Source of the DNA: an uncultured Thermoplasmata archaeon
GTDB lineage: Archaea; Thermoplasmatota; Thermoplasmata; Lutacidiplasmatales; UBA184
Length of the DNA stretch: 64,000 bases
Direction of reading: 5' to 3'
NCBI GenBank assembly: GCA_963787975.1
Contig: CAWBEU010000010.1
Coordinates: 27,272 to 91,271, forward strand
The stretch's first letter is position 1. The number at the start of each line of letters is the position of its first letter. The position numbers and the translations under genes were made by a program. The notes below the pieces were generated by a model that was not told the DNA's origin, made no database searches, and saw only the letters and a program-made list of their open reading frames with translations. Below, piece by piece: positions 26,669 through 40,545 of this stretch.

Positions 26669-26974
26669 TCATCTCGGAGAGGGACCCGTTTCGGGGCTGA
26701 ATGTGCGAATGGCCCCTTGGGCGTTGAACGCCACCTTACATGCGTAGGACGCGCCGCCTCGAACGGCCCGGCAGGTTCTCCCCCGACGATCGCCTGCTAT
26801 GTCAAGACTATCGACCGTGGCCCACCCCGTCTCGGCCTTGATTCGGTCCACCAAATTTCGGAACTGGGCGGCACAGACGTCGCAGCAGAAGAACAGCCGT
26901 GTCCCGTCCACCTCTTCCCAGAGGTTCCCCCAGCTGGAGTCGCAGATGGCGCAGGCCGCATAGTTAACTTTCAA
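26669..26974 (-). CDS. Cys-rich TRASH/YHS-like (Ta0938-like) metal-binding protein
   Basis: Within ORF 26669..27001. TTG 26974 overlaps the upstream stop. CAICDSSWGNLWEEVDGTRLFFCCDVCAAQF fits the C-x2-C ... FC-x3-C-x3-F TRASH/YHS pattern. Confidence 0.5.
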   Translation of the reverse strand: MKVNYAACAICDSSWGNLWEEVDGTRLFFCCDVCAAQFRNLVDRIKAETGWATVDSLDIAGDRRGRTCRAVRGGASYACKVAFNAQGAIRTFSPETGPSPR

Positions 26975-27860
26975 ATTGGGCCGCCCGCTCGAGCCGAGCA
27001 ATCAGATAGTCGTCGAACAGGTCCGCCGAGCGGAGGAACGTGGATTGGACGTCCTCGATACGACCCGCCGGGGTGGCGAACTGATCGACGAGGGCGAGCG
27101 CCTCGTCCGAGTGTCCCACGTCCGCCTCGTAGCCCTCTCGGAGAAACGCCTTGGTGGCCCCGGTGACTTCCGAGCCCGAAAGGATGCCCGGGTCGAAGTA
27201 GCGAATGGATGCCCCCTCCTTCACGAGGTCCCGGTTGGCGATGAGCTCCAGGCTGTGCATCGCCGCCATCGCCTCCACCCAGTGCTCTCCGGTGGCGATC
27301 CGATTCCATTCCTGGATCGCGACCGCCGTCGACGGGAGAGGAGGGGTTCGGAGTACCTGGTCCCGCTGGACCCCGAGGCTCTCCCCCATCTGGAGCAGAA
27401 GTTCGTAGTGGGAGGGCGTCGGCGTTCCGAACCCGCCAAACTCTGTGTTGAGGTTGTCGAGCTCATACCGGGCCACCTCGGGCTCGTCCGTTCGTGCCAT
27501 GATGTAGGCGCACGAACGCACCCATTGGCGGAGGAAGTGCTGATGCTCGAAGACGTAGCCGAGGAGGGTGGCGCGCGACGGATGCTGGAGCGCAGCGGGG
27601 AACGGGTGGGGGGGCTGGCCGTAGAACTTCGCGATGAATCGAGCCCTGATCCACGCGGACACCGGAGCCGAGCCGAGGTCAAAGAAGCGCCGGAGTCGGC
27701 CCTCCAACTCGGCGGGCGTCGATTTCTTCCTCGTGATGTTCTGGTTCAACCACCGTACGTGTGCGGCGTCGCTCGCATCGGCGCGTTCGACCAGGTGGTG
27801 GCTCAACGCGTCGTAGTCTCCCGGCGAATTGGGGGCCAAACACGCAGGGCATTTTGTCAT
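26964..27860 (-). CDS. Heme-oxygenase-like (iron-containing redox enzyme / PqqC-TenA-like) protein with N-terminal CxxC
   Basis: ORF 26964..27884; ATG 27860 is preceded by GAGGT. An all-helical protein with LLGYVFEHQHFLRQW, ELDNLNTEFG, and HSLELIANRD ... REGYEADVGH, consistent with the 7-helix heme-oxygenase-like fold with conserved Glu/His ligand positions. Confidence 0.55.
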   Translation of the reverse strand: MTKCPACLAPNSPGDYDALSHHLVERADASDAAHVRWLNQNITRKKSTPAELEGRLRRFFDLGSAPVSAWIRARFIAKFYGQPPHPFPAALQHPSRATLLGYVFEHQHFLRQWVRSCAYIMARTDEPEVARYELDNLNTEFGGFGTPTPSHYELLLQMGESLGVQRDQVLRTPPLPSTAVAIQEWNRIATGEHWVEAMAAMHSLELIANRDLVKEGASIRYFDPGILSGSEVTGATKAFLREGYEADVGHSDEALALVDQFATPAGRIEDVQSTFLRSADLFDDYLIARLERAAQFES

Positions 27861-27880
27861 TCGGGACCTCGAATTAGAGC

Positions 27881-28099
27881 TCAAAAGGGAAAGTCGGCGG
27901 GGAGGCGCGCCCGCAGGCGTTGGTACTCGGGATCAGCGGCGGCAAATCGTTCGCGCATCTGACGCAAGGTCTCCTTCACGTCCTCGGGGGTCCGGTGGCG
28001 GCTATCCGCGACCATCTCGATCGTTCGTTCGAAATCCGCGTGGCACGCCTCGAAGCAGTTTCCCATGCCCGTGAGCAATTCGCGCTCGCGTGGATTCAC
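27881..28099 (-). CDS. Small helical protein, first gene of the heme-oxygenase-like operon
   Basis: 72-aa ORF (MNPRERELLTGMGNCFEACHADFERTIEMV...). Its stop abuts the next gene. No family recognised. Confidence 0.4.
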   Translation of the reverse strand: MNPRERELLTGMGNCFEACHADFERTIEMVADSRHRTPEDVKETLRQMRERFAAADPEYQRLRARLPADFPF

Positions 28100-31377: not shown

Positions 31378-32298
31378 GTGGAGATCAGCGACCTAATCCT
31401 TCCCCTCGGGGCCGTCGGGAGTCTCGCCGTCGCTCTGTATGTGGGCTGGAAATTCTACCATAGGTACTATCAGGCCGTTCCTCCGAACCGCGCTCTGGTC
31501 CTCTACGGTGGCTCTCGTTCCCACGGTCCTTCCTCCACGAACCAGTCGGTGGACCTGAGGCTCCCTCGGATCGTGGTGGGCGGAGGCGTGTTCGTCCCGC
31601 CGTGGCGGCAAGGGTCGGACCTCCTTTCCCTCAGCCCGCTGGACGCGGACGCCCGGGTAATCTTCGCCGGAACGGACCCTACGGAGACGCCGTGGGAGGT
31701 TCGCTTGGCGGTCCAGGTCAAGATCCCTGTCGACCCTCGAATGCTCTCGACGGCGGCCGAGAATCTACTCGGTCGTAGTGAGCCGGAGATCCGGGCCCTG
31801 GTCGTCCGCACAGTCGAGGCCATCGCGCCGGCAGTGGCCCTCCGGGAGCTTTCGAACGACCCGGGAGCCGGCTGGGATCGGTTGGCCGCCGAAATCCAGG
31901 CCGCGGTCGCTCCGGAACTCGTCGCGATGGGATTGGAGATCCGGACGCTCTCGGTGACTCAGCTGCGGCACCTCTCAACGCAGGAGCGAACTGACGTCTC
32001 GGCGGTGGGAGCTCCCCACATGTCTCGGGACCTGCTCTGGGCGTCGGGTGACCTCGGGGTACGGCTACGGGGCGTCGAGACCCGTCTGGACCGAACCGAG
32101 CGAAGCCTGGGGCTCCTCGGTGCCGAAGTGATGCGACAGGGGAAGGACAGTTCGCAGTTCCCGGAGCTTCCGGCGTTACAGCCTTACGATTCGACGGGGG
32201 ACGAGCGCTCGTCTCGGCCCTCCATCCGCGGCTCGCGAGGAGCCGCGGGAGGGGGAGTCGGCGGGGCCACCCGACCTCTGTTGGATGCAGAAGGGTAA
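31378..32298 (+). CDS. SPFH/Band-7 (flotillin-like) membrane protein
   Basis: GTG start; N-terminal TM helix LILPLGAVGSLAVALYVGW, then YQAVPPNRALVLYGG and an SPFH-like core (VRLAVQVKIPVDPRML...AENLLGRSEPEIRALVVRTVEAIAPAVALRE...). The C-terminal part is helical. Confidence 0.6.
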   Translation: MEISDLILPLGAVGSLAVALYVGWKFYHRYYQAVPPNRALVLYGGSRSHGPSSTNQSVDLRLPRIVVGGGVFVPPWRQGSDLLSLSPLDADARVIFAGTDPTETPWEVRLAVQVKIPVDPRMLSTAAENLLGRSEPEIRALVVRTVEAIAPAVALRELSNDPGAGWDRLAAEIQAAVAPELVAMGLEIRTLSVTQLRHLSTQERTDVSAVGAPHMSRDLLWASGDLGVRLRGVETRLDRTERSLGLLGAEVMRQGKDSSQFPELPALQPYDSTGDERSSRPSIRGSRGAAGGGVGGATRPLLDAEG

Positions 32299-33328
32299 GA
32301 GGAAAACCATGTGCCCAGCAGCGATTTTGGGGGACAGAGCTTGCGGAAAGACGACCTTCCTGGGACTGCTCTACGCAGCCCAGGTCAAGTACGGTACTCG
32401 GGTGGTGGACTCGTTCCGGTTCCACGCCCCGTTGCAGTCGCTCCGCTTGATGAGCCAGGTCTACGAGGGAATGAAGGACGCCCGCTTCCCGGGCGCGACG
32501 CTCAAGGACGAAATGACCGAAATCGGCTTCGTTTTCGGCTACAGGAAGGCGCTCTCCGGCCGACTACCGGCGGTGCTGAAAGAGAAGAACTGGGTCAACC
32601 CGTTCGCCAAGCTCCAGTTCGCGGCCTACGATGTCTCCGGCGAGGACGTGCAGGAATTCATCGAAACCGGCGTCGCGGCGAGCCCGATCATTCAGCAGCT
32701 CATGAAGAGCCACATCGTTGTCGTGCTGGTCGACTGCAGCAAGATGACGACGGAGATCGACTCTCCGCTGTTCCGCCAGATGCTGAAGTACGACAGCGAG
32801 GTCGCGTCCCTGCTCGTCTCGCTCCAAACCTACAAGCGCCAGGAATTCTCGCGCATGAAGGCCCAGGGACTGAGTGCGGGAAACCCCGTGATCTACCCCG
32901 CGATGGTCCTGTCCAAGTTCGACTCGATCCGCGACGAGGTGCTCGTGAAACTGGGACTCCACCGCGGAGTGCCTGCGGGCGACCAAAAGCGCAAGCGGAA
33001 GGAGTACGCGGAGGCGTTGCTCCGGGTCTTCATGCCACAGAGCCTCTCCCAGATCCGCGGAGGGAAGGTCGCCGGGGTCAACTTTGACCAGGCCGCCTAC
33101 TTCTTCAGCTGGGTCCGGACCGAGACCGTCGAAGCCGGCATGCAGCCCGTCGGGGCGCCCCGCATCGTCCGCAAGGGCTTCTCCGCCGACGGCGGAGCGG
33201 AGCCGGACTTCTCGTACGACGACTACGTCGCGTTCATCGAGCACTTCCGCGACGTGGCGAACAAAGTGCCAGACGAGATCGTCGAGCAGGCGACGCTCCA
33301 GCCCGCCCCCGCAGCGGCGCCCGCGTGA
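32285..33328 (+). CDS. P-loop GTPase, Arf/Sar-like motifs, uncharacterised family
   Basis: G1 ILGDRACGKTTFLGLLY (Lys codon AAG at 32348-32350), G3 AAYDVSGEDV (compare Arf WDVGGQD), and G4 VLSKFD. An alternative start, ATG 32309, follows AGAGGAAAA. Paralogue of 34257..35189. Confidence 0.65.
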   Translation: MQKGKRKTMCPAAILGDRACGKTTFLGLLYAAQVKYGTRVVDSFRFHAPLQSLRLMSQVYEGMKDARFPGATLKDEMTEIGFVFGYRKALSGRLPAVLKEKNWVNPFAKLQFAAYDVSGEDVQEFIETGVAASPIIQQLMKSHIVVVLVDCSKMTTEIDSPLFRQMLKYDSEVASLLVSLQTYKRQEFSRMKAQGLSAGNPVIYPAMVLSKFDSIRDEVLVKLGLHRGVPAGDQKRKRKEYAEALLRVFMPQSLSQIRGGKVAGVNFDQAAYFFSWVRTETVEAGMQPVGAPRIVRKGFSADGGAEPDFSYDDYVAFIEHFRDVANKVPDEIVEQATLQPAPAAAPA

Positions 33329-34194
33329 AGGGCGGACGCGCGATGACCGACGCACAACTGGAGGGTCTCCTCGTGGAGAGCCCGGAGGAGGTCCTCCAAC
33401 TCGAGCACTGGATCTATGGAGCCAGTCCCGAGAAGGGCTACGGGACGAAGGCCGAGTCGATGGGACTCAATGGGCCGCTGTATCAGCGCTACCTGGGGAG
33501 TCATATGACACCGGTCCGGGTGGAGAAGACGGCGAGCGGATCGACAGTGATCGATGCCCGCATGATCCACCCTGCTCCCGCCAACGACGAGGTCTTGCTG
33601 TCCATCCTCGGGCGCGGCGTGGCCGATGAGTACAACCGCCCAACAATCCAGAACCACACGGTTGTGTTGCCCGGGAAGCTGCTTCGCGCCGGTAGGCTAT
33701 CGTTCACAATGGCCGAGGGCGCCATCCTGGACTACGACCGACGGGTACCCAAGGCGAGTGGCCGCATCGAGCCGCTCTCGCTACGCCTGCCGCCCGAGAG
33801 TGCGCCACGAGAGAACCCAGGGACGGGCATCCGACGCTTTATCACGAAGGCCGCGGTCGACACGCTGGTCAGTCGGTTCCTGGCCGATGGGCACGGGAGG
33901 ACCCTTCTCCTCTGCCGCGGCAGCACTCACCAGTATCGCAACGAGCTCCTCTACAAGCTAGTGGAGCTGCTGAGCGCCGGCGGGGAGATTCCTCAGTTCA
34001 CCGCCATCAGCGATGCGCCTACGCTGAGCGCGATGAATCACTTCCGACTCGCTATCTCCTCGCGCGGAGTTCGGGCGGATGGGACCTGGACCCTGCTTGA
34101 CGCCAGCATCGACCGAGCGACGCTCCAGCCGATCCGCGGACGTGCCCCGGTTTACTCAAGAGTGGCCGAGGCGTTTGGGAACGTGAGCCCTTGA
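33325..34194 (+). CDS. Hypothetical protein with GAP1-N-like N-terminus (GTPase-associated)
   Basis: GTG 33325 overlaps the preceding stop (GTGA); ATG 33343 is an alternative. The N-terminus LQLEHWIYGASPEKGYGTKAESMGL resembles the hQLHYTS..G..G.Q.kA.S.G signature I recall for GAP1 N-terminal domains. The rest is unassigned. Confidence 0.45.
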   Translation: MKGGRAMTDAQLEGLLVESPEEVLQLEHWIYGASPEKGYGTKAESMGLNGPLYQRYLGSHMTPVRVEKTASGSTVIDARMIHPAPANDEVLLSILGRGVADEYNRPTIQNHTVVLPGKLLRAGRLSFTMAEGAILDYDRRVPKASGRIEPLSLRLPPESAPRENPGTGIRRFITKAAVDTLVSRFLADGHGRTLLLCRGSTHQYRNELLYKLVELLSAGGEIPQFTAISDAPTLSAMNHFRLAISSRGVRADGTWTLLDASIDRATLQPIRGRAPVYSRVAEAFGNVSP

Positions 34195-34256: not shown

Positions 34257-35189
34257 ATGGCCTCCGCGCTCGTCCTCGGTGAGCGGGGCTGCGGCCTCAC
34301 GACGTTCGTCGGGCTCCTCTACACTGCCCAGGTCCGTCTCGGAACGGAGAACGCGGATGAGTTTCGTTTTCACGCCGAACGCGAATCCATCCAGCAGATG
34401 GAGGCGGTCTACGGCGAGCTCGGCGCCGGCCGATTTCCGGCGGCCGACATCGATTGGGAGCAACATCCCCTGTCCTTCGTGTTCGGCTTCCGGAGGGGGC
34501 ACATCGCTTGGTTCGCCGGCGGGGGCGCGTCCGGCGAGCAGGGGTTCTCGACCGTCCGGTTCCAGGTGGGGGGCATGCCGGCGGACGTGGTCCACGAGTT
34601 GCGGGACCACGACGCCATCTTGGATCGCACTACCCTGAATCTCCTGCGGAGTCCGATTCAGATCCCTATCGTGGATGGCGCATGGCTGGTCCCGGACCGC
34701 TCGAGCATCGCGGGGTTGCCGCTCGCACGGTACGATCAGCACTTGGCCGCGACTCTCGACCTGCTTCGGAAGTTCCTCGCGGCGGACCGGGACCGGCGCG
34801 CCCGCCAGATGTTTCCCCTCTTCGTCGTGACGAAATTCGACCGAGTCCGAGAGGAGACGCTCAAGGCGCTCGGAGCCCCCGAGGGCGCCCCGGGAGATTG
34901 GACACCCGAGGCCCGACGAGCGGTGGGAACAAGGATCCTCGAAGGATACTTGCCGGCCACGGCCGCCTTCCTGGCCCGGGCCACAAAGGACGGTGTCCGG
35001 CTCGCGGAGCCCGGCTGGTACTTCAGCGGTCTTCGGACGGAGGAGAGGGGCGACGAGATCAGGATTCTCCGACGGCGAATATCCCCGGTCAGCGGCTGGG
35101 AGCCGGAGTACCCCTTCGAAGAGTACCGCGGAATGCTTGCTCGGATCGGAGAGCTTGCGGGACGGCTCCCCGCCGAGCCGATCGAGTAG
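34257..35189 (+). CDS. Pseudo-GTPase paralogue of 32285..33328 (Walker-A Lys replaced by Leu)
   Basis: The ATG is preceded by GAGGAG. VLGERGCGLTTFVGLLYTAQVRLGT..FRFHA aligns residue for residue with ILGDRACGKTTFLGLLYAAQVKYGT..FRFHA. The G1 Lys is Leu (CTC at 34296-34298), G3 is FQVGGMPADV (Asp lost), and G4 VVTKFD is retained. Confidence 0.6.
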   Translation: MASALVLGERGCGLTTFVGLLYTAQVRLGTENADEFRFHAERESIQQMEAVYGELGAGRFPAADIDWEQHPLSFVFGFRRGHIAWFAGGGASGEQGFSTVRFQVGGMPADVVHELRDHDAILDRTTLNLLRSPIQIPIVDGAWLVPDRSSIAGLPLARYDQHLAATLDLLRKFLAADRDRRARQMFPLFVVTKFDRVREETLKALGAPEGAPGDWTPEARRAVGTRILEGYLPATAAFLARATKDGVRLAEPGWYFSGLRTEERGDEIRILRRRISPVSGWEPEYPFEEYRGMLARIGELAGRLPAEPIE

Positions 35190-35194
35190 AGCGG

Positions 35195-36913
35195 CTACGC
35201 CGACGCGGCCGGATCAGGAACGGCGCGATACCGGTAGCCCTCTCGGTGCGACCCCTCACGAACAACGGACCATCCGGGGAACTTCCAGGTCCCACCCTCC
35301 GGCACGAACTGGGGATCCCCCTGGCTCAGCTCGCCCAGTTCCGCCTCGAGGTACTCATGGTCGGTGGCGACCTCGGGGGCGATTATTCCCTTCTGGAGGA
35401 GAGTGGTAAGCAGAGGGAGTCCTGCGGGCCGTCCTCGCCACTTAACAGCCAGGAACGCCTTTCGAAACTCTCCGTCCCGGAGGAGTTGCTCCCGGAGGCT
35501 GGCATACGGCGGCCGATTCCGGTAGTCCCGCGGCGGGGCGTCTAGCCGTCGCTTCTCCCGGCGGCTTTCCTCAACGACGGCGCGCCAGGTTGCCGCCGAG
35601 GCGGCCTTGGCCTCCCAGATCGAGACCGCGTCTACCTGTTCGTCCTCGCCCTGGCCGCCGGCAGAGGCACCGCCAGAGTCCACCCCTTCCGGATGCTCCT
35701 GCGTGGCGAGCCGGCCTCCAGCCTTCCGCGGTCCCTTCGGGGTGACTAGTGTGAAGGCCAGCGCCGCGCCGCTTGCCGCGCCCGACGGGGGTCGGATCTG
35801 AAGCTCCTCGCAATCCGGGTACCGGTTCGGATGCAGCACAATGAAGGGACCGCTCTCCGAGGCGCTGAACAATGTTGCGAGCGCCTCGTTCACGGTGGCG
35901 ACCTGCCGACGGACCGCTAGCTCGCTTACCCGGATGAGAGGAAGGCCGGCCTCGGCCTTTCGAGGACGCGAAGCAAGGTCATCGACGAAGGCTTGGGACA
36001 CCTCGGCCTGAATCTGTTGCGTCGCGGTTCGACTGACCGCGCCTTCCGCGGCATGCGACCGGGACAACCCACGTCGGACCCGATGTCCCACGCTCCCTTC
36101 GCGGATGGCCTGCTGGTGCACCGCCCAGAGCCGCATGTTCAGCCAAGGGTGGAGCTTCCCCCCACTCACCTTCGATTCGGCAAAGATTCCGCCCCAGCGA
36201 TCTTGGGCCGTCTCCGCCCAGGTGGTGTCGTCCGGGCTGTGTCGGTACCAAGTCAACGCGAATTCCCGGAGAAGAGCCCCGGCGCTGAGCGGATCGTCGA
36301 CCTCGCGCTTGACTCGCTCCATCAGGGCCTCCGAGCGTGCCGCGAGCAGCGCAAGCAACTCCGGGTCCCCCGCGCCCTCGCGGAGCAAGGGAGCGAGCGG
36401 AATCTGGTTCAGCGCCTGAATGTCGAACTGTTCGGCCGGGTCAAGAGCGAGGAAGCTCCGTAGGGTTTCGGAGCGGACCGGCCGCCCGATTGGCCGAACG
36501 GAAGCTCCCGGCGACGGCTGCGAGTCGGGTAAGGCGGGAGGGGGCTCTGGTAGTGAGACGGGCGGAGATTCCGGTGGAGCGACGGGTACCCGGATGGGAC
36601 GGCTGGGTTCTGAGGCGGTTAGAGCCCGGGTCTCGGGTGGCGCCCGTTCGGGAGACTCGGACCCCGCGTGAGGAGCTGTTCGACGCAAGACCTCCACGTC
36701 GTGCAACCGGCGGTGGTGCTCCCGCTCGATGCGCAGTCGCTCATCCGCTCGCCGGCGATCCTTTTCGCGCTGGATTCGGTCGGCGTCCGTCTCGTTCACC
36801 ATGCGGCAGGGGTCGCCAGACCCAACCAAAATTGGGGCGGCCCGAGGCATTAATCGTTTCGTCGGGGGAAGGCCGGAGGCTGGTCGTCCTTCGGTGGTGT
36901 CAAGGCCGGGCAA
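35195..36913 (-). CDS. Large hypothetical protein (charged coiled-coil N-terminus, Pro-rich linker, helical body)
   Basis: 572-aa ORF. The likely start is ATG 36802 (MVNETDADRIQREKDRRRADERLRIEREHHRRL), because 36913 leaves only 44 nt to the divergent dodecin gene. Its stop is 5 nt from the stop of the pseudo-GTPase gene (convergent). No family recognised. Confidence 0.5.
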   Translation of the reverse strand: MPGLDTTEGRPASGLPPTKRLMPRAAPILVGSGDPCRMVNETDADRIQREKDRRRADERLRIEREHHRRLHDVEVLRRTAPHAGSESPERAPPETRALTASEPSRPIRVPVAPPESPPVSLPEPPPALPDSQPSPGASVRPIGRPVRSETLRSFLALDPAEQFDIQALNQIPLAPLLREGAGDPELLALLAARSEALMERVKREVDDPLSAGALLREFALTWYRHSPDDTTWAETAQDRWGGIFAESKVSGGKLHPWLNMRLWAVHQQAIREGSVGHRVRRGLSRSHAAEGAVSRTATQQIQAEVSQAFVDDLASRPRKAEAGLPLIRVSELAVRRQVATVNEALATLFSASESGPFIVLHPNRYPDCEELQIRPPSGAASGAALAFTLVTPKGPRKAGGRLATQEHPEGVDSGGASAGGQGEDEQVDAVSIWEAKAASAATWRAVVEESRREKRRLDAPPRDYRNRPPYASLREQLLRDGEFRKAFLAVKWRGRPAGLPLLTTLLQKGIIAPEVATDHEYLEAELGELSQGDPQFVPEGGTWKFPGWSVVREGSHREGYRYRAVPDPAASA

Positions 36914-38568: not shown

Positions 38569-39150
38569 GTGGACCCTGCCGTTCCGCCCCAGAGCGCCTC
38601 GCTCCCGCCGAGCGCGGTGTCGCTGGAGGACCGCCGCTGGCTACACGACAAGTTCGAGCGCCTGGCGGCCGAGGAGGGGCAGCTCGCGGCCGGAAGGACG
38701 TCGTACTTCGCCGCCATCGGCACGGTCTTGATCACCGCGATGGTCGTCGCAGTCGCTGACCTGTCAGGGAACCCGCTCGAGCTGACGTTCTTCATCACGT
38801 TCCTCTCTGTTCTTGGGGTCCTCATCACGTTCGTCTGGGCCGTGCTGCTCCATCGCACGAACGATGCCCAGAGCTTGTGGCGAGAATCGAACTTGCGCCT
38901 CGAGCAGCTGTCTCCACCGATCGAGGGGTCCATACCCGTCCCGGTGACCCTCCGGTCGGGAGCGTCTCTTTCCGTGAACCTCCTGCGTCCGTACGAGTCG
39001 CATGCGGCCCGCTTTTCGAAGGCTCGGTCGATCTCGTGGATGGACCGAGTGAACCCAGAGGGTCTCACGGAGGTACTGCCGGTCACCTTCCTGATCGTTT
39101 GGTCAGCGGCGCTGGTCGTCGTGTGGGCTTGGTACCTGTTCTTTCACTAG
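38569..39150 (+). CDS. Hypothetical membrane protein
   Basis: 193-aa ORF (GTG start) with three clear hydrophobic helices (YFAAIGTVLITAMVVAVA, LTFFITFLSVLGVLITFVWAVLL, VLPVTFLIVWSAALVVVWAWYLF). I preferred it over the antisense ORF 38493..39086. Confidence 0.45.
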   Translation: MDPAVPPQSASLPPSAVSLEDRRWLHDKFERLAAEEGQLAAGRTSYFAAIGTVLITAMVVAVADLSGNPLELTFFITFLSVLGVLITFVWAVLLHRTNDAQSLWRESNLRLEQLSPPIEGSIPVPVTLRSGASLSVNLLRPYESHAARFSKARSISWMDRVNPEGLTEVLPVTFLIVWSAALVVVWAWYLFFH

Positions 39151-39165
39151 CGCGGGCGTCGATGT

Positions 39166-40545
39166 CTAAACGTCGACCTCAGCGTGGACCTTCGCCCGGC
39201 GGACCGCTCGGACCAGGGCAGCATGGTCTTGCGCCGTCTGGTCCGCGTACGCCTCGGCGAAGGATGCAACGGCGACATCGAAGAGATCTCGGGTCCCCAG
39301 ATACCCGCTGATGAAAGCCGGGTCGCCCGTCCGAGCATGCGCCCGCGCCAGCGCCGCTCCGCAGAGGCCGGCCTGGCCGATCAATGTCTTGGGACGCAGC
39401 GTCGCGGCGTCGGTGGAGAACTTCATGTCCCGCAGCTGCCGGAAGTAGAAGTCGCGGGAGTTCAACCGGCTCCAACCGAGAAAGATGTCGCTGGCTTCCT
39501 GGATGAGGTGCTGGCCGATCACGACTCGTTGCGCGTGGTTTTCGAACCGGCTCGGTCCCGCATAGGGTTCGAGAACGGAGGCGTTGGCCTGTTTGAGCTG
39601 GAGAAAGAGGGGGTCTTCCACGTCGCGATCGGCCATGAGCAATATGACCGAACAGACGGTACCCACGCTTCCCACACCGACCACTTTCTGGGCCACGTCG
39701 ACGATGTGGTAGCGTTCCAGCAACGTCCGCCGCTCATCGGCGAGGGTCCTCATGTACTGATCGAAGAACTTCCGAGACTCCTCGGCGTCGGCGGGATTCT
39801 TGTAGTGCACGATCAACGGCGGGTCGTCCCGGATCTTGTATCGCCCATGGACGGTCTGTACCAATTTCGGGAAGGCGTGGAAGACGGTGCGGCGGCGGGC
39901 TCGACGGACCGCCTGGGCGATGATCCTTCGGCCCTCGCGGCTGGACTGGCGCGAGATGGTCCGGCGGTCGATATGAGAGTACCACGTGTCGAGGTATCGA
40001 GCGGTCCCGAACGCCTGCATGTGGTGGCGGTAGGCCCGGAGGGCGGTGAGAGCGGCCCTCCGGCCGATGTCGCGTGAGAACCGGTTGTTCCGGCCCACCA
40101 GGACGAGGCTCGTTGCGAGTCGCTTGACATCCCATTCCCACGGGCCGGGCAGGGTCTCATCGAAATCGTTGACGTCGAAGACCCGATTTCGCTCCGGAGT
40201 CGCAAACACGCCGAAATTGCTGAGATGAGCGTCCCCGCAGAGTTGCGCTCTGCCTCCGCAGATTGGCGTGGTCGCTAGGTCGCGGGCCATTATGCTCGCC
40301 GACCCGCGATAGAACATGAAGGGCGAGAGCGACATGCGCCCGTACCAGATCGGGACGAGGGACGACACGCGGGTGTGGCTCGCGGCTTCGAGCGTGTCGA
40401 CCGGGTCGGGTCGCCCTTTGGGTGGAGTCCAGCCGGCATGGCTCGACCGGGGCACTCGTTGCCGGGCGGCTTTCCCGTCCATGTACCGCTGCCGACGCGT
40501 TCGGGCGGGAGCGGAGGTCCGCCCCACCGAGATTGCCATGCCCAC
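39166..40545 (-). CDS. DUF2252 domain protein
   Basis: MSLSPFMFYRGSASIMARDLA, GDAHLSNFG and FDVNDFDETLPGPWEWDVKRLATS match the DUF2252 family as I recall it. Confidence 0.7.
   Translation of the reverse strand: MGMAISVGRTSAPARTRRQRYMDGKAARQRVPRSSHAGWTPPKGRPDPVDTLEAASHTRVSSLVPIWYGRMSLSPFMFYRGSASIMARDLATTPICGGRAQLCGDAHLSNFGVFATPERNRVFDVNDFDETLPGPWEWDVKRLATSLVLVGRNNRFSRDIGRRAALTALRAYRHHMQAFGTARYLDTWYSHIDRRTISRQSSREGRRIIAQAVRRARRRTVFHAFPKLVQTVHGRYKIRDDPPLIVHYKNPADAEESRKFFDQYMRTLADERRTLLERYHIVDVAQKVVGVGSVGTVCSVILLMADRDVEDPLFLQLKQANASVLEPYAGPSRFENHAQRVVIGQHLIQEASDIFLGWSRLNSRDFYFRQLRDMKFSTDAATLRPKTLIGQAGLCGAALARAHARTGDPAFISGYLGTRDLFDVAVASFAEAYADQTAQDHAALVRAVRRAKVHAEVDV

Follow-up and report, generated by a model that had tools for sequence, protein, structure and literature searches.

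A conserved pseudo-GTPase-type paralogue beside an active GTPase in Thermoplasmata archaea

A stretch of 64,000 nucleotides from an uncultured Thermoplasmata archaeon (assembly GCA_963787975.1, contig CAWBEU010000010.1, positions 27,272 to 91,271; here, the window) encodes two GTPase-like proteins, g2 and g4, within a single run of genes. In this paper, we report a computational analysis of g4, the degenerate member of the pair, and of its relatives. A pseudo-GTPase was defined operationally as a protein with a G-domain fold, with its binding or hydrolysis residues lost, that is kept by selection. The fold predicted for g4, its loss of G-motif residues and its conservation under purifying selection agree with this definition, and the sequence comparisons support g4 as a bona fide conserved pseudo-GTPase-type paralogue. 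We further propose, with a probability of roughly 0.55, that g4 is a selected non-catalytic paralogue working with g2, both being parts of an archaeal GTPase switch module that is associated with the membrane. Eukaryotic pseudo-GTPases are well known; in archaea, to our knowledge, such proteins have barely been described.

The degenerate paralogue and its active partner

At 31.4-35.2 kb the forward strand of the window carries four co-directional open reading frames (ORFs), g1 to g4, which are followed by the convergent g5. The genes and the motifs of the two GTPase-like proteins are as follows.

g1, 31378-32298, forward strand: SPFH/Band-7 (flotillin-like) protein with an N-terminal transmembrane helix
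g2, 32309-33328 (alternative start 32285), forward strand: active GTPase paralogue
g3, 33343-34194 (alternative start 33325), forward strand: 283-aa protein with a predicted TagF / longin-DENN-like two-domain fold
g4, 34257-35189, forward strand: 310 aa, degenerate GTPase paralogue
g5, 35195-36913, reverse strand: 572 aa, convergent, unassigned fold, conserved module member
g2 motifs: G1 GDRACGKTT 32330-32356 (Lys 32348-32350); G2 FPGATLK 32486-32506; G3 DVSGE 32630-32644; G4 SKFD 32912-32923; G5-like YFFSW 33098-33112
g4 motifs: P-loop GERGCGLTT 34278-34304 (Leu 34296-34298); switch-I FPAADID 34434-34454; G3 position GGMPAD 34569-34586; G4 TKFD 34830-34841; G5-like WYFSG 35016-35030
g3 conserved loop: D95-x3-R99...N-H105, 33625-33660, family-wide

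Translation of g2 probably starts at ATG 32309 (MCPAAILG...), since the homologues start there, and the ATG at 32285 is the less likely start.

BLASTP aligned g2 and g4 from end to end (28% identity over 326 columns, E = 3e-44), and by this comparison g4 is a full-length paralogue of g2, far beyond chance. The blocks that a preliminary description had matched from the sequence alone all align, namely ILGDRACGKTTF with VLGERGCGLTTF, FRFHA in both proteins, FVFGYRK with FVFGFRR and SKFD with TKFD. The replacement of the P-loop lysine reported there was likewise found, the AAG codon at 32348-32350 of g2 corresponding to the leucine codon CTC at 34296-34298 of g4 (codon 14), with all three bases different. 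The same description had the G3 motif of g2, YDVSGE, turning into FQVGGM; the aspartate is indeed lost, but the register was off by about three residues, and YDVSGE pairs with GGMPAD (G105-D110). At this position the aspartate is replaced by glycine and the glycine of DxxG by alanine. The switch-I segment FPGATLK of g2 reads FPAADID in g4, with aspartate in place of the G2 threonine. What g4 keeps is the glycine frame of the P-loop, the Thr-Thr following the lost lysine, TKxD, FFS with its G5-like serine (YFFS in g2, WYFS in g4) and the overall fold.

Among 5.8 billion clustered proteins, 193 relatives of g4 turned up; the 120 that were listed range from 52 to 99% identity. All 120 are metagenomic and, wherever source names are given, come from metagenome-assembled genomes (MAGs) of Thermoplasmata archaea. 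The position of the P-loop lysine is occupied by leucine in 115 of these listed orthologues, by glutamine in three and by arginine in one; the preliminary description had named an intact GKT/S among orthologues as the observation that would speak for lineage-specific decay, and the listed orthologues do not bear this out. The G3 aspartate position is glycine in 113/120, the threonine following the lost lysine is kept in 117/120, and the G4 motif TKxD is close to invariant (T192 in 120/120, K193 in 119/120, D195 in 120/120). A few orthologues show further changes (TQFD, GQTT). The ORF is intact and of constant length (~310 aa) in at least 120 clusters. The ratios of non-synonymous to synonymous substitution (dN/dS; Nei-Gojobori, against close relatives at dS 0.6-1.5) were about 0.03 for g2, 0.05-0.09 for g4, 0.06-0.10 for g3, 0.12-0.14 for g5 and 0.12-0.25 for g1. 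On account of the orthologue conservation and the low dN/dS, g4 is to be regarded, at the level of sequence, as a functional, constrained protein and the lysine-to-leucine change as a stable trait of its clade. The pseudo-GTPase pattern put forward earlier, in which catalytic residues are lost and TKxD is kept, therefore holds as a degenerate state that is conserved across the 120 listed orthologues.

Both proteins also have an arginine, Arg10, at the third position of the P-loop (G-D/E-R-x-x-G-K/L-T; 32336-32338 in g2 and 34284-34286 in g4), which is equivalent to Gly12 of Ras. Every active copy whose sequence extends over the motif has this arginine, as do 108/120 listed g4 orthologues. By way of speculation, it could be a catalytic arginine acting in cis or in trans, a hint at dimer-dependent catalysis.

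The AlphaFold2 (AF2) model of g4 (pLDDT 85, pTM 0.88) has a G-domain with its motifs at the expected strand ends: the P-loop, G3 and G4 lie at the ends of strands 1, 3 and 5, with the P-loop after strand 1, the degenerate G3 after residues 97-104, TKFD after 184-192 and FFS after 253-256. An insertion follows helix 1, and a beta-meander precedes the last helix. The strand hairpin before G3 and the position of [ST]KxD after strand 5 lead us to read the modelled strand order as TRAFAC-like. When compared with the PDB using Foldseek, the model matched GTPases only, all of them weakly (Gs-alpha, 1.3e-3; Gtr1-Gtr2, 2.4e-3; eEF2; Rnd1; SR-beta; YcjX), and most of these are TRAFAC GTPases (Gs-alpha, Gtr, eEF2, Rnd1). 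A profile search of the PDB with the joint g4 and g2 alignment gave only non-significant matches to Gs-alpha, spanning strand 4 to the NKxD region, and the g2 alignment gave 0 matches at E ≤ 10. Because the Foldseek matches are weak and the PDB profile searches gave nothing significant, this is a GTPase family without a solved close relative. Scans of g3, g4 and g5 against Pfam, NCBIfam and PADLOC assigned them to no family.

Gene orders and second copies across loci

The gene neighbourhood was surveyed in three contigs obtained by look-up and in 80 loci of GTDB species representatives retrieved with a g2-family alignment, all annotated by BLASTP against g1 to g5. The order of genes, with their strands, is g1+ g2+ g3+ g4+ g5- in type A, the clade of the window; second copy+ g2+ g3+ g5- in type B; g5- g1+ g2+ g3+ second copy+ in type C; and g5+ second copy- g2+ g3+ in type D. 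Two single loci differ again, L002 with g2+ second copy+ g3+ and L087 with a g5-like fragment, a multi-transmembrane protein, g2-like+, a g3-AAA fusion+ and second copy-. The linkage of g2, g3 and g5 with the second paralogue thus persists through at least five gene orders. The second paralogue was found in 74 of the 83 loci with an active copy, and the other nine end at a contig edge on the expected side; wherever the contig allows the check (74/74 loci), a degenerate second paralogue is present. In the surveyed loci g3 always adjoins the active GTPase gene, g5 homologues (33-81% identity) adjoin the GTPase genes in 72/83, in several arrangements, and g1 adjoins them in 43/83 (types A and C).

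Several MAGs hold two or three paralogous systems. One of them, the Thermoplasmata MAG JOPF257, has a type A locus (L018) and a third, divergent system, L087 (L087:1-5227), with the g5-like fragment, a 180-aa multi-transmembrane protein, an active GTPase (GHTSSGKS, YDVAGED, SKFD) and the g3-AAA+ fusion; on the opposite strand lies the degenerate paralogue, 260 aa long (GPAGGGATT; TKWD is kept), and a guanylate-cyclase/TPR gene adjoins. The tight, convergent junction with g5 is conserved although the partner gene differs. It is formed with g3 in type B, where the two genes overlap tail to tail by 31 nt in every locus checked (L004:10862-10892; L052, L053, L057, L058 and others), and with g4 in the window clade, where they lie 5 nt apart or overlap by 4 nt.

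Two loci carry bacterial labels. The contig DAIDCO010000007.1 ('bacterium isolate clean3188'; L021) has a g2 homologue 92% identical to that of the window and the full archaeal gene order, and JACPFH010000714.1 ('Deltaproteobacteria bacterium'; L083) has one at 66% identity; both probably represent archaeal contigs that were mis-binned or mislabelled, and not occurrences in bacteria. Two apparent g2-g3 fusions (P0195, P0209) were considered as Rosetta-stone evidence and set aside, as they show internal deletions, have no contig record and were treated as probable assembly chimeras.

All GTPase-like ORFs of the surveyed loci were aligned. Active copies fill 85 rows, among them window g2, a split ORF and two duplicate loci. 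In these rows the catalytic motif residues are invariant and the other motif positions nearly so, with G1 GDRA[CS]GKTT in 83/83 rows covering it, G2 FPxATLK, G3 [YF]DV[SA]GED and G4 xKFD, while the G5-like YFFSW is nearly invariant. DxxGE (Walker B) is absent from the second copies of every lineage. Type B second copies lack this motif only and keep GKTT, the switch-I T-K, SKFD and FFS. An intact P-loop does therefore exist outside the g4 orthologues, in these distant copies, but always without DxxGE. In type A the lysine has become leucine and the switch-I threonine aspartate or glutamate, with TKxD and FFS kept; the P-loop reads GTTT or GVTT in type C, GRTF in type D and GGGATT, together with TKWD, in L087. 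Hence the lysine is replaced in types A, C, D and L087 (by L, T/V, R and A, in that order) and [ST]KxD is kept in all four, whereas the second copies of L072 and L081 have lost every G motif. Of the 77 second-copy rows, 71 keep the G4 lysine and 75 the G4 aspartate; the count takes in two duplicate loci and an active copy truncated at its N-terminus (L084).

In a neighbour-joining (NJ) tree the active copies group in one tight clan with short branches, with the second copies outside it on long branches, and the second copy evolves several-fold faster than the active one. We read this as one old duplication after which one copy evolved at an accelerated rate, a reading that the NJ method and the long branches make tentative. 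Judged from the alignment, Walker B was already lost in the ancestor of all second copies, and the lysine-to-leucine change is later, clade-specific and stably maintained. The P-loop lysine and the switch-I threonine were apparently lost in some lineages after Walker B, more than once, and the total loss of motifs in a few lineages is the last stage of the series.

Predicted partners and flanking genes

The preliminary description had recognised the GTPase pair and left out g3 between the two GTPases, the convergent g5 and g1 upstream. The AF2 model of g3 (pLDDT 82, pTM 0.84) has two domains, the first modelled with an alpha+beta order that fits a longin domain and the second as an alpha/beta sandwich. 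The best Foldseek match is TagF of the Acinetobacter type VI secretion system (T6SS) (9t0n, E 2.7e-5, TMq 0.49), followed by a chain of the C9orf72:SMCR8:WDR41-ARF1 complex (E 2e-4) and by weaker matches (E 0.01-0.05) to the Lst4 longin domain (9.5e-3), FLCN-FNIP2, GATOR1 and a Lokiarchaeota Roadblock-Longin protein. Set against the longin-DENN module, g3 has no d-DENN, and its secondary-structure order, in one model from a shallow alignment, fits longin plus an alpha/beta sandwich. At the sequence level g3 matched nothing in Pfam, in NCBIfam or in a PDB profile search (E ≤ 10).

A profile search of 1.84 billion representatives gave 66 members of the g3 family at E ≤ 1e-3. Among them the domain is fused to RuvB-like or classical AAA+ ATPases, to a HerA/DUF87 ATPase, to a C-terminal P-loop domain or to a TIR domain. 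Fusions outside the module are found at L086:884-2239 (P0402) and in P0368, P0370, P0392, P0384, P0385 and P0381, and the AAA+ fusion partners carry a winged helix. On the strength of these fusions to AAA+, HerA and P-loop modules, the g3 domain looks like a general partner of P-loop NTPases, sometimes in defence-like architectures. Across 47 diverse members, H22, G32-Y33, S39, P57, D95, R199, P226 and W249 are conserved, and R99 and H105 are each kept in 45/47. The segment D95-x3-R99...H105 forms a loop of the longin-like domain in the model and, judging from its position, could supply an arginine to a GTPase site. The arginine fingers of longin-domain GTPase-activating proteins (GAPs; FLCN, Nprl2, SMCR8) act on GTPase sites.

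The membrane link is given by g1 and by some forms of g5. The g1 protein matches Pfam Band_7 (E 4.7e-5) and NCBIfam FloT (9e-9), and its hydrophobic segment spans residues 3-21. No Pfam match was found for g5, and no PDB match in a sequence search. In type D homologues, the shared C-terminal domain, which corresponds to the window g5 from residue ~294 onwards, is fused to a long N-terminal region holding a PKD domain and at least seven hydrophobic segments, and some type B homologues have an N-terminal transmembrane segment. The type D fusion ORFs are L060:3116-6010, L064:2783-6016 and L070:3092-5917, all mechanical calls with uncertain starts. The PKD and multi-hydrophobic fusions of type D suggest that g5 is a membrane-facing or extracellular-sensing arm of the module.

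The module is flanked in the window by housekeeping genes (citrate synthase, an OB-fold protein, SRPBCC, MsrB, VIT1 and DUF2252), and no mobile-element genes were seen among them. This synteny is kept among close relatives only and cannot discriminate a core from a mobile location. Two further gene pairs of the window are conserved in close relatives. At 26669-27884 on the reverse strand, the ORF of a 110-aa Ta0938-family metal-binding protein overlaps by some 38 nt with that of a TENA/PQQC-like iron-containing redox enzyme, whose N-terminus bears a C2H2 zinc finger; L006-L010 share this pair in synteny. Downstream of MsrB and VIT1, a member of the 8xMP (octameric membrane protein) family (38569-39150) and a convergent DUF2252 protein (39166-40545) form a block that is conserved as a unit.

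Readings of the module and their meaning

Nucleotide-dependent G-domain dimers in other families work as pairs of this kind, and by analogy an active/inactive heterodimer of g2 and g4 is plausible. In such a complex g4 would pair with g2 as the catalytically silent subunit, and therefore a single GTP site would turn over and the complex would be asymmetric. The G4 and G5 residues of g4 might hold a guanine nucleotide or nucleoside without hydrolysing it, or maintain an interface that faces the nucleotide of the partner. Dimers of the dynamin type make a trans contact of the latter kind, across the G-domain interface to the nucleotide of the partner. Phosphate-independent binding of a guanine ligand and a trans contact to the partner nucleotide are thus candidate explanations for the retention of TKxD and FFS. 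The g3 protein would dock on the pair as a regulator or adaptor, be it a GAP-like arginine donor, a guanine nucleotide exchange factor or a platform; the SPFH protein g1 may tether the assembly to the membrane, as the polytopic region fused to g5 may do in other clades; and g5 would be an output or adaptor. Stress on the envelope or membrane, the organisation of membranes and conflicts with invaders are among the possible biological settings.

Several points weigh against this proposal. The co-occurrence of g2 and g4 in the loci speaks for a functional linkage and not for a heterodimer. Leucine in place of the Walker-A lysine normally cripples phosphate binding, which sits oddly with a conserved TKxD. 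The alignment behind the g4 model included active paralogues, a bias towards a canonical G domain. The fold of g3 comes from one AF2 model with a shallow alignment (68-99% identity) and modest Foldseek TM-scores of 0.24-0.49, and the likeness of R99 to the arginine finger of longin-domain GAPs is one of position only. Finally, the comparative data all derive from MAGs, and the loci are the 80 most similar to g2.

The nearest published counterpart is the DO-GTPase/GAP1 system. In its sections on these systems, Kaur et al. 2020 (PMC7159879) describes DO-GTPases as TRAFAC GTPases with a Walker-B glutamate, in systems that are predicted only. Two paralogous copies occur in 38% of the systems, from which dimers were inferred; a GAP1 protein that co-evolves with the GTPase is encoded downstream; membrane proximity is a further feature; and the systems are predicted to serve in conflict. 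The window module could accordingly be a divergent archaeal DO-GTPase/GAP1 conflict system, in which the pair sets a threshold, g3 is a GAP1-like sensor or coordinator, g5 or a fused domain is the effector and g4 is a regulatory or decoy subunit. We consider this unlikely. In its favour, 32/32 members of the g2 family match DO-GTPase2 (PF19993) at E ≤ 0.01 (best 8.5e-8) and 18 match DO-GTPase1; one type B second copy scores 34.8 bits against DO-GTPase2, above the cut-off; the hallmark Walker-B glutamate is present (DVSGE); two paralogous GTPase genes lie in the neighbourhood with a conserved partner directly downstream; the g3 domain is fused elsewhere to TIR, AAA+ and HerA-like ATPases; and some genomes hold two or three paralogous systems.

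Other evidence speaks against it. The Pfam matches span the N-terminal 25-60 residues only, window g2 itself reaches 22.9 bits with DO-GTPase2, below the cut-off of 27, and window g4 matches neither DO-GTPase model (PF19975, PF19993). No GAP1 model of Pfam or NCBIfam (E ≤ 1) matched g3 or four divergent homologues, so that the conserved protein encoded downstream has no GAP1 match. Divergent homologues of g3, g5 and the second copy matched no GAP1 or TagF model in Pfam, and at E ≤ 0.01 only DO-GTPase (two second copies) and PKD (type D g5) were returned. Against Pfam at E ≤ 1, g1 to g5 matched only Band_7 and DO-GTPase models, with no GASH or FNIII; no N-terminal zinc ribbon was found in the module proteins; and neither were variable effectors, the TIR, AAA+ and HerA fusions occurring only in other members of the g3 family. 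A PADLOC scan gave no match, no relatives were found on the 2.9 million viral contigs of IMG/VR, and the flanks are housekeeping genes without mobile elements. In addition, g2 is ~92-97% identical across the type A clade at a dN/dS of ~0.03, which is unusual for arms-race systems.

On sequence, the window GTPases are thus borderline members of the DO-GTPase family. They share with the DO-GTPase/GAP1 systems a TRAFAC-type GTPase with the glutamate of DxxGE, the frequent presence of two paralogues, a downstream partner, membrane proximity and a partner domain that is fused to TIR elsewhere; unlike those systems, the window module is archaeal, highly conserved in sequence and free of variable effectors, and one copy is systematically dead, whereas the sections on systems in Kaur et al. 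2020 mention no inactive copy. By analogy, we treat the window module as working like a DO-GTPase/partner switch, without taking its membership as demonstrated. DO-GTPase pairs accompanied by a downstream partner had already been predicted, and the finding is thus not categorically new.

Under a second alternative, g4 is a nucleotide-independent scaffold that binds g5, g1 or g3 and not g2, their paralogy being merely historical. The far faster evolution of g4 than of g2 (window compared with L001: 53% identity for g4, 93% for g2), the retention in the module of the L072 and L081 copies without any G motif and the tail-to-tail arrangement of g4 with g5 in the window clade would all fit a scaffold. 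We nevertheless regard it as improbable, as the invariant TKxD, P-loop glycine frame and Thr-Thr of the 120 listed orthologues would be hard to explain, type B copies keep G1, G2, G4 and G5, and the inference published for paired DO-GTPases is dimerisation (PMC7159879).

A third alternative, that g4 is an active NTPase with an unconventional site in which the P-loop Arg10 or a trans residue replaces the Walker-A lysine, appears very improbable. The arginine is indeed widespread (108/120 listed g4 orthologues), and the Mg-coordinating Thr15 is conserved. Yet the active copy has both the arginine and the lysine, hence the former is no replacement for the latter; moreover, the G1 lysine, the G2 threonine and the G3 aspartate and glycine are lost together, and no compensating acidic or glycine residue is conserved at G3. 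A pseudogene, or a lineage-specific decay of g4 towards loss, as its fast evolution relative to g2 and the extra changes (TQFD, GQTT) in a few orthologues might suggest, is rejected and left with next to no probability by an intact ~310-aa ORF with many invariant residues in at least 120 clusters, a dN/dS of 0.05-0.09 and a second paralogue kept in all informative loci of deeply diverged clades.

Returning to the proposal of a catalytically silent g4 that works with g2, the comparison with Rag or SRP/SR pairs offered in the preliminary description was imprecise, since both partners are active in those systems and SRP/SR is of the SIMIBI class, against a TRAFAC-like fold here; SRP/SR has two active composite sites, and here one copy is dead. 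The resemblance to Rag/Gtr is of another kind. Together with FLCN-FNIP/Lst7-Lst4, GATOR1 and C9orf72-SMCR8, Rag/Gtr likewise combines a paralogous GTPase pair with a longin(-DENN)-type protein, in our case a predicted one, at a membrane, and the g4 model matches Gtr1-Gtr2 (4arz_B, prob 1.0). However, each Rag subunit is active, and the two dimerise by means of roadblock domains at their C-termini, of which none is evident here; the C-terminal part of the g4 model is the beta-meander with one helix, inserted before the last helix of the G domain; and the similarity is at the fold level only, with TM-scores of 0.2-0.5 (0.32 for the Gtr match) and no d-DENN. The logic of Rag with a longin GAP may therefore serve as a useful functional analogy, not as membership.

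TagF, a T6SS accessory protein and post-translational regulator of assembly (9t0n, 2qnu), is the best structural match of g3 and has the same two-domain alpha+beta / alpha/beta layout; the authors of its structure (bioRxiv 10.64898/2025.12.08.692957), who describe this layout, report that they know of no homologue for the C-terminal domain. In contrast to g3, with which it shares no sequence similarity, bacterial TagF works with T6SS parts (Hcp, Fha) and not with GTPases. No T6SS components were found among the proteins scanned around the module, nor any match to the TagF_N model, and a literature search for links between TagF and DENN or longin returned nothing usable.

Pseudo-GTPases of hetero-oligomers (for example septin pseudoGTPases, PMC10731463; Rnd, CENP-M; alpha/beta-tubulin as an analogy) resemble g4 in that a hydrolysis-dead paralogue is kept as an obligate partner and in a stepwise degeneration that differs between lineages. 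Those proteins are eukaryotic and unrelated, and the combination found here, in which the base-recognition motif is kept and the phosphate-binding lysine lost, is unusual. YcjX, a stress-associated GTPase (6nz4-6) and presumably the DO-GTPase-family protein linked to Psp, has the highest TM-score among the listed PDB matches of g4 (TMq 0.42-0.43), with an E-value of only 0.02; it differs in being single and active, in its large helical insertion and in its partner, YcjF. A PSP study has tied an unnamed DO-GTPase-family member to Psp operons and membrane stress.

A wider reading, which we find rather unlikely and offer as tentative, is that the Thermoplasmatota, a non-Asgard lineage, possess an ancient, vertically inherited membrane switch in which an active/pseudo GTPase pair is joined to a longin-DENN/TagF-like regulator, a prokaryotic counterpart of the Rag-FLCN/FNIP and C9orf72-SMCR8 logic. 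If true, the DENN-type two-domain module would not be a eukaryotic invention, bacterial TagF would be linked to the module, and the repeated, independent loss of the P-loop lysine with NKxD kept would point to a guanine-sensing or trans-acting role, that of a phosphate-blind G domain. With g3, the longin-DENN/TagF fold may reach to NTPase partners in archaea (the GTPase here; AAA+, HerA and TIR fusions elsewhere), which bears on how the GTPase regulators of eukaryotes arose and on what the predicted DO-GTPase systems of bacteria do. Thermoplasmata of soil and sediment carry the module widely, and its natural series of degeneration beside a frozen partner offers material on what a dead G domain adds to a GTPase switch and bears on why base-recognition residues outlast phosphate-binding ones.

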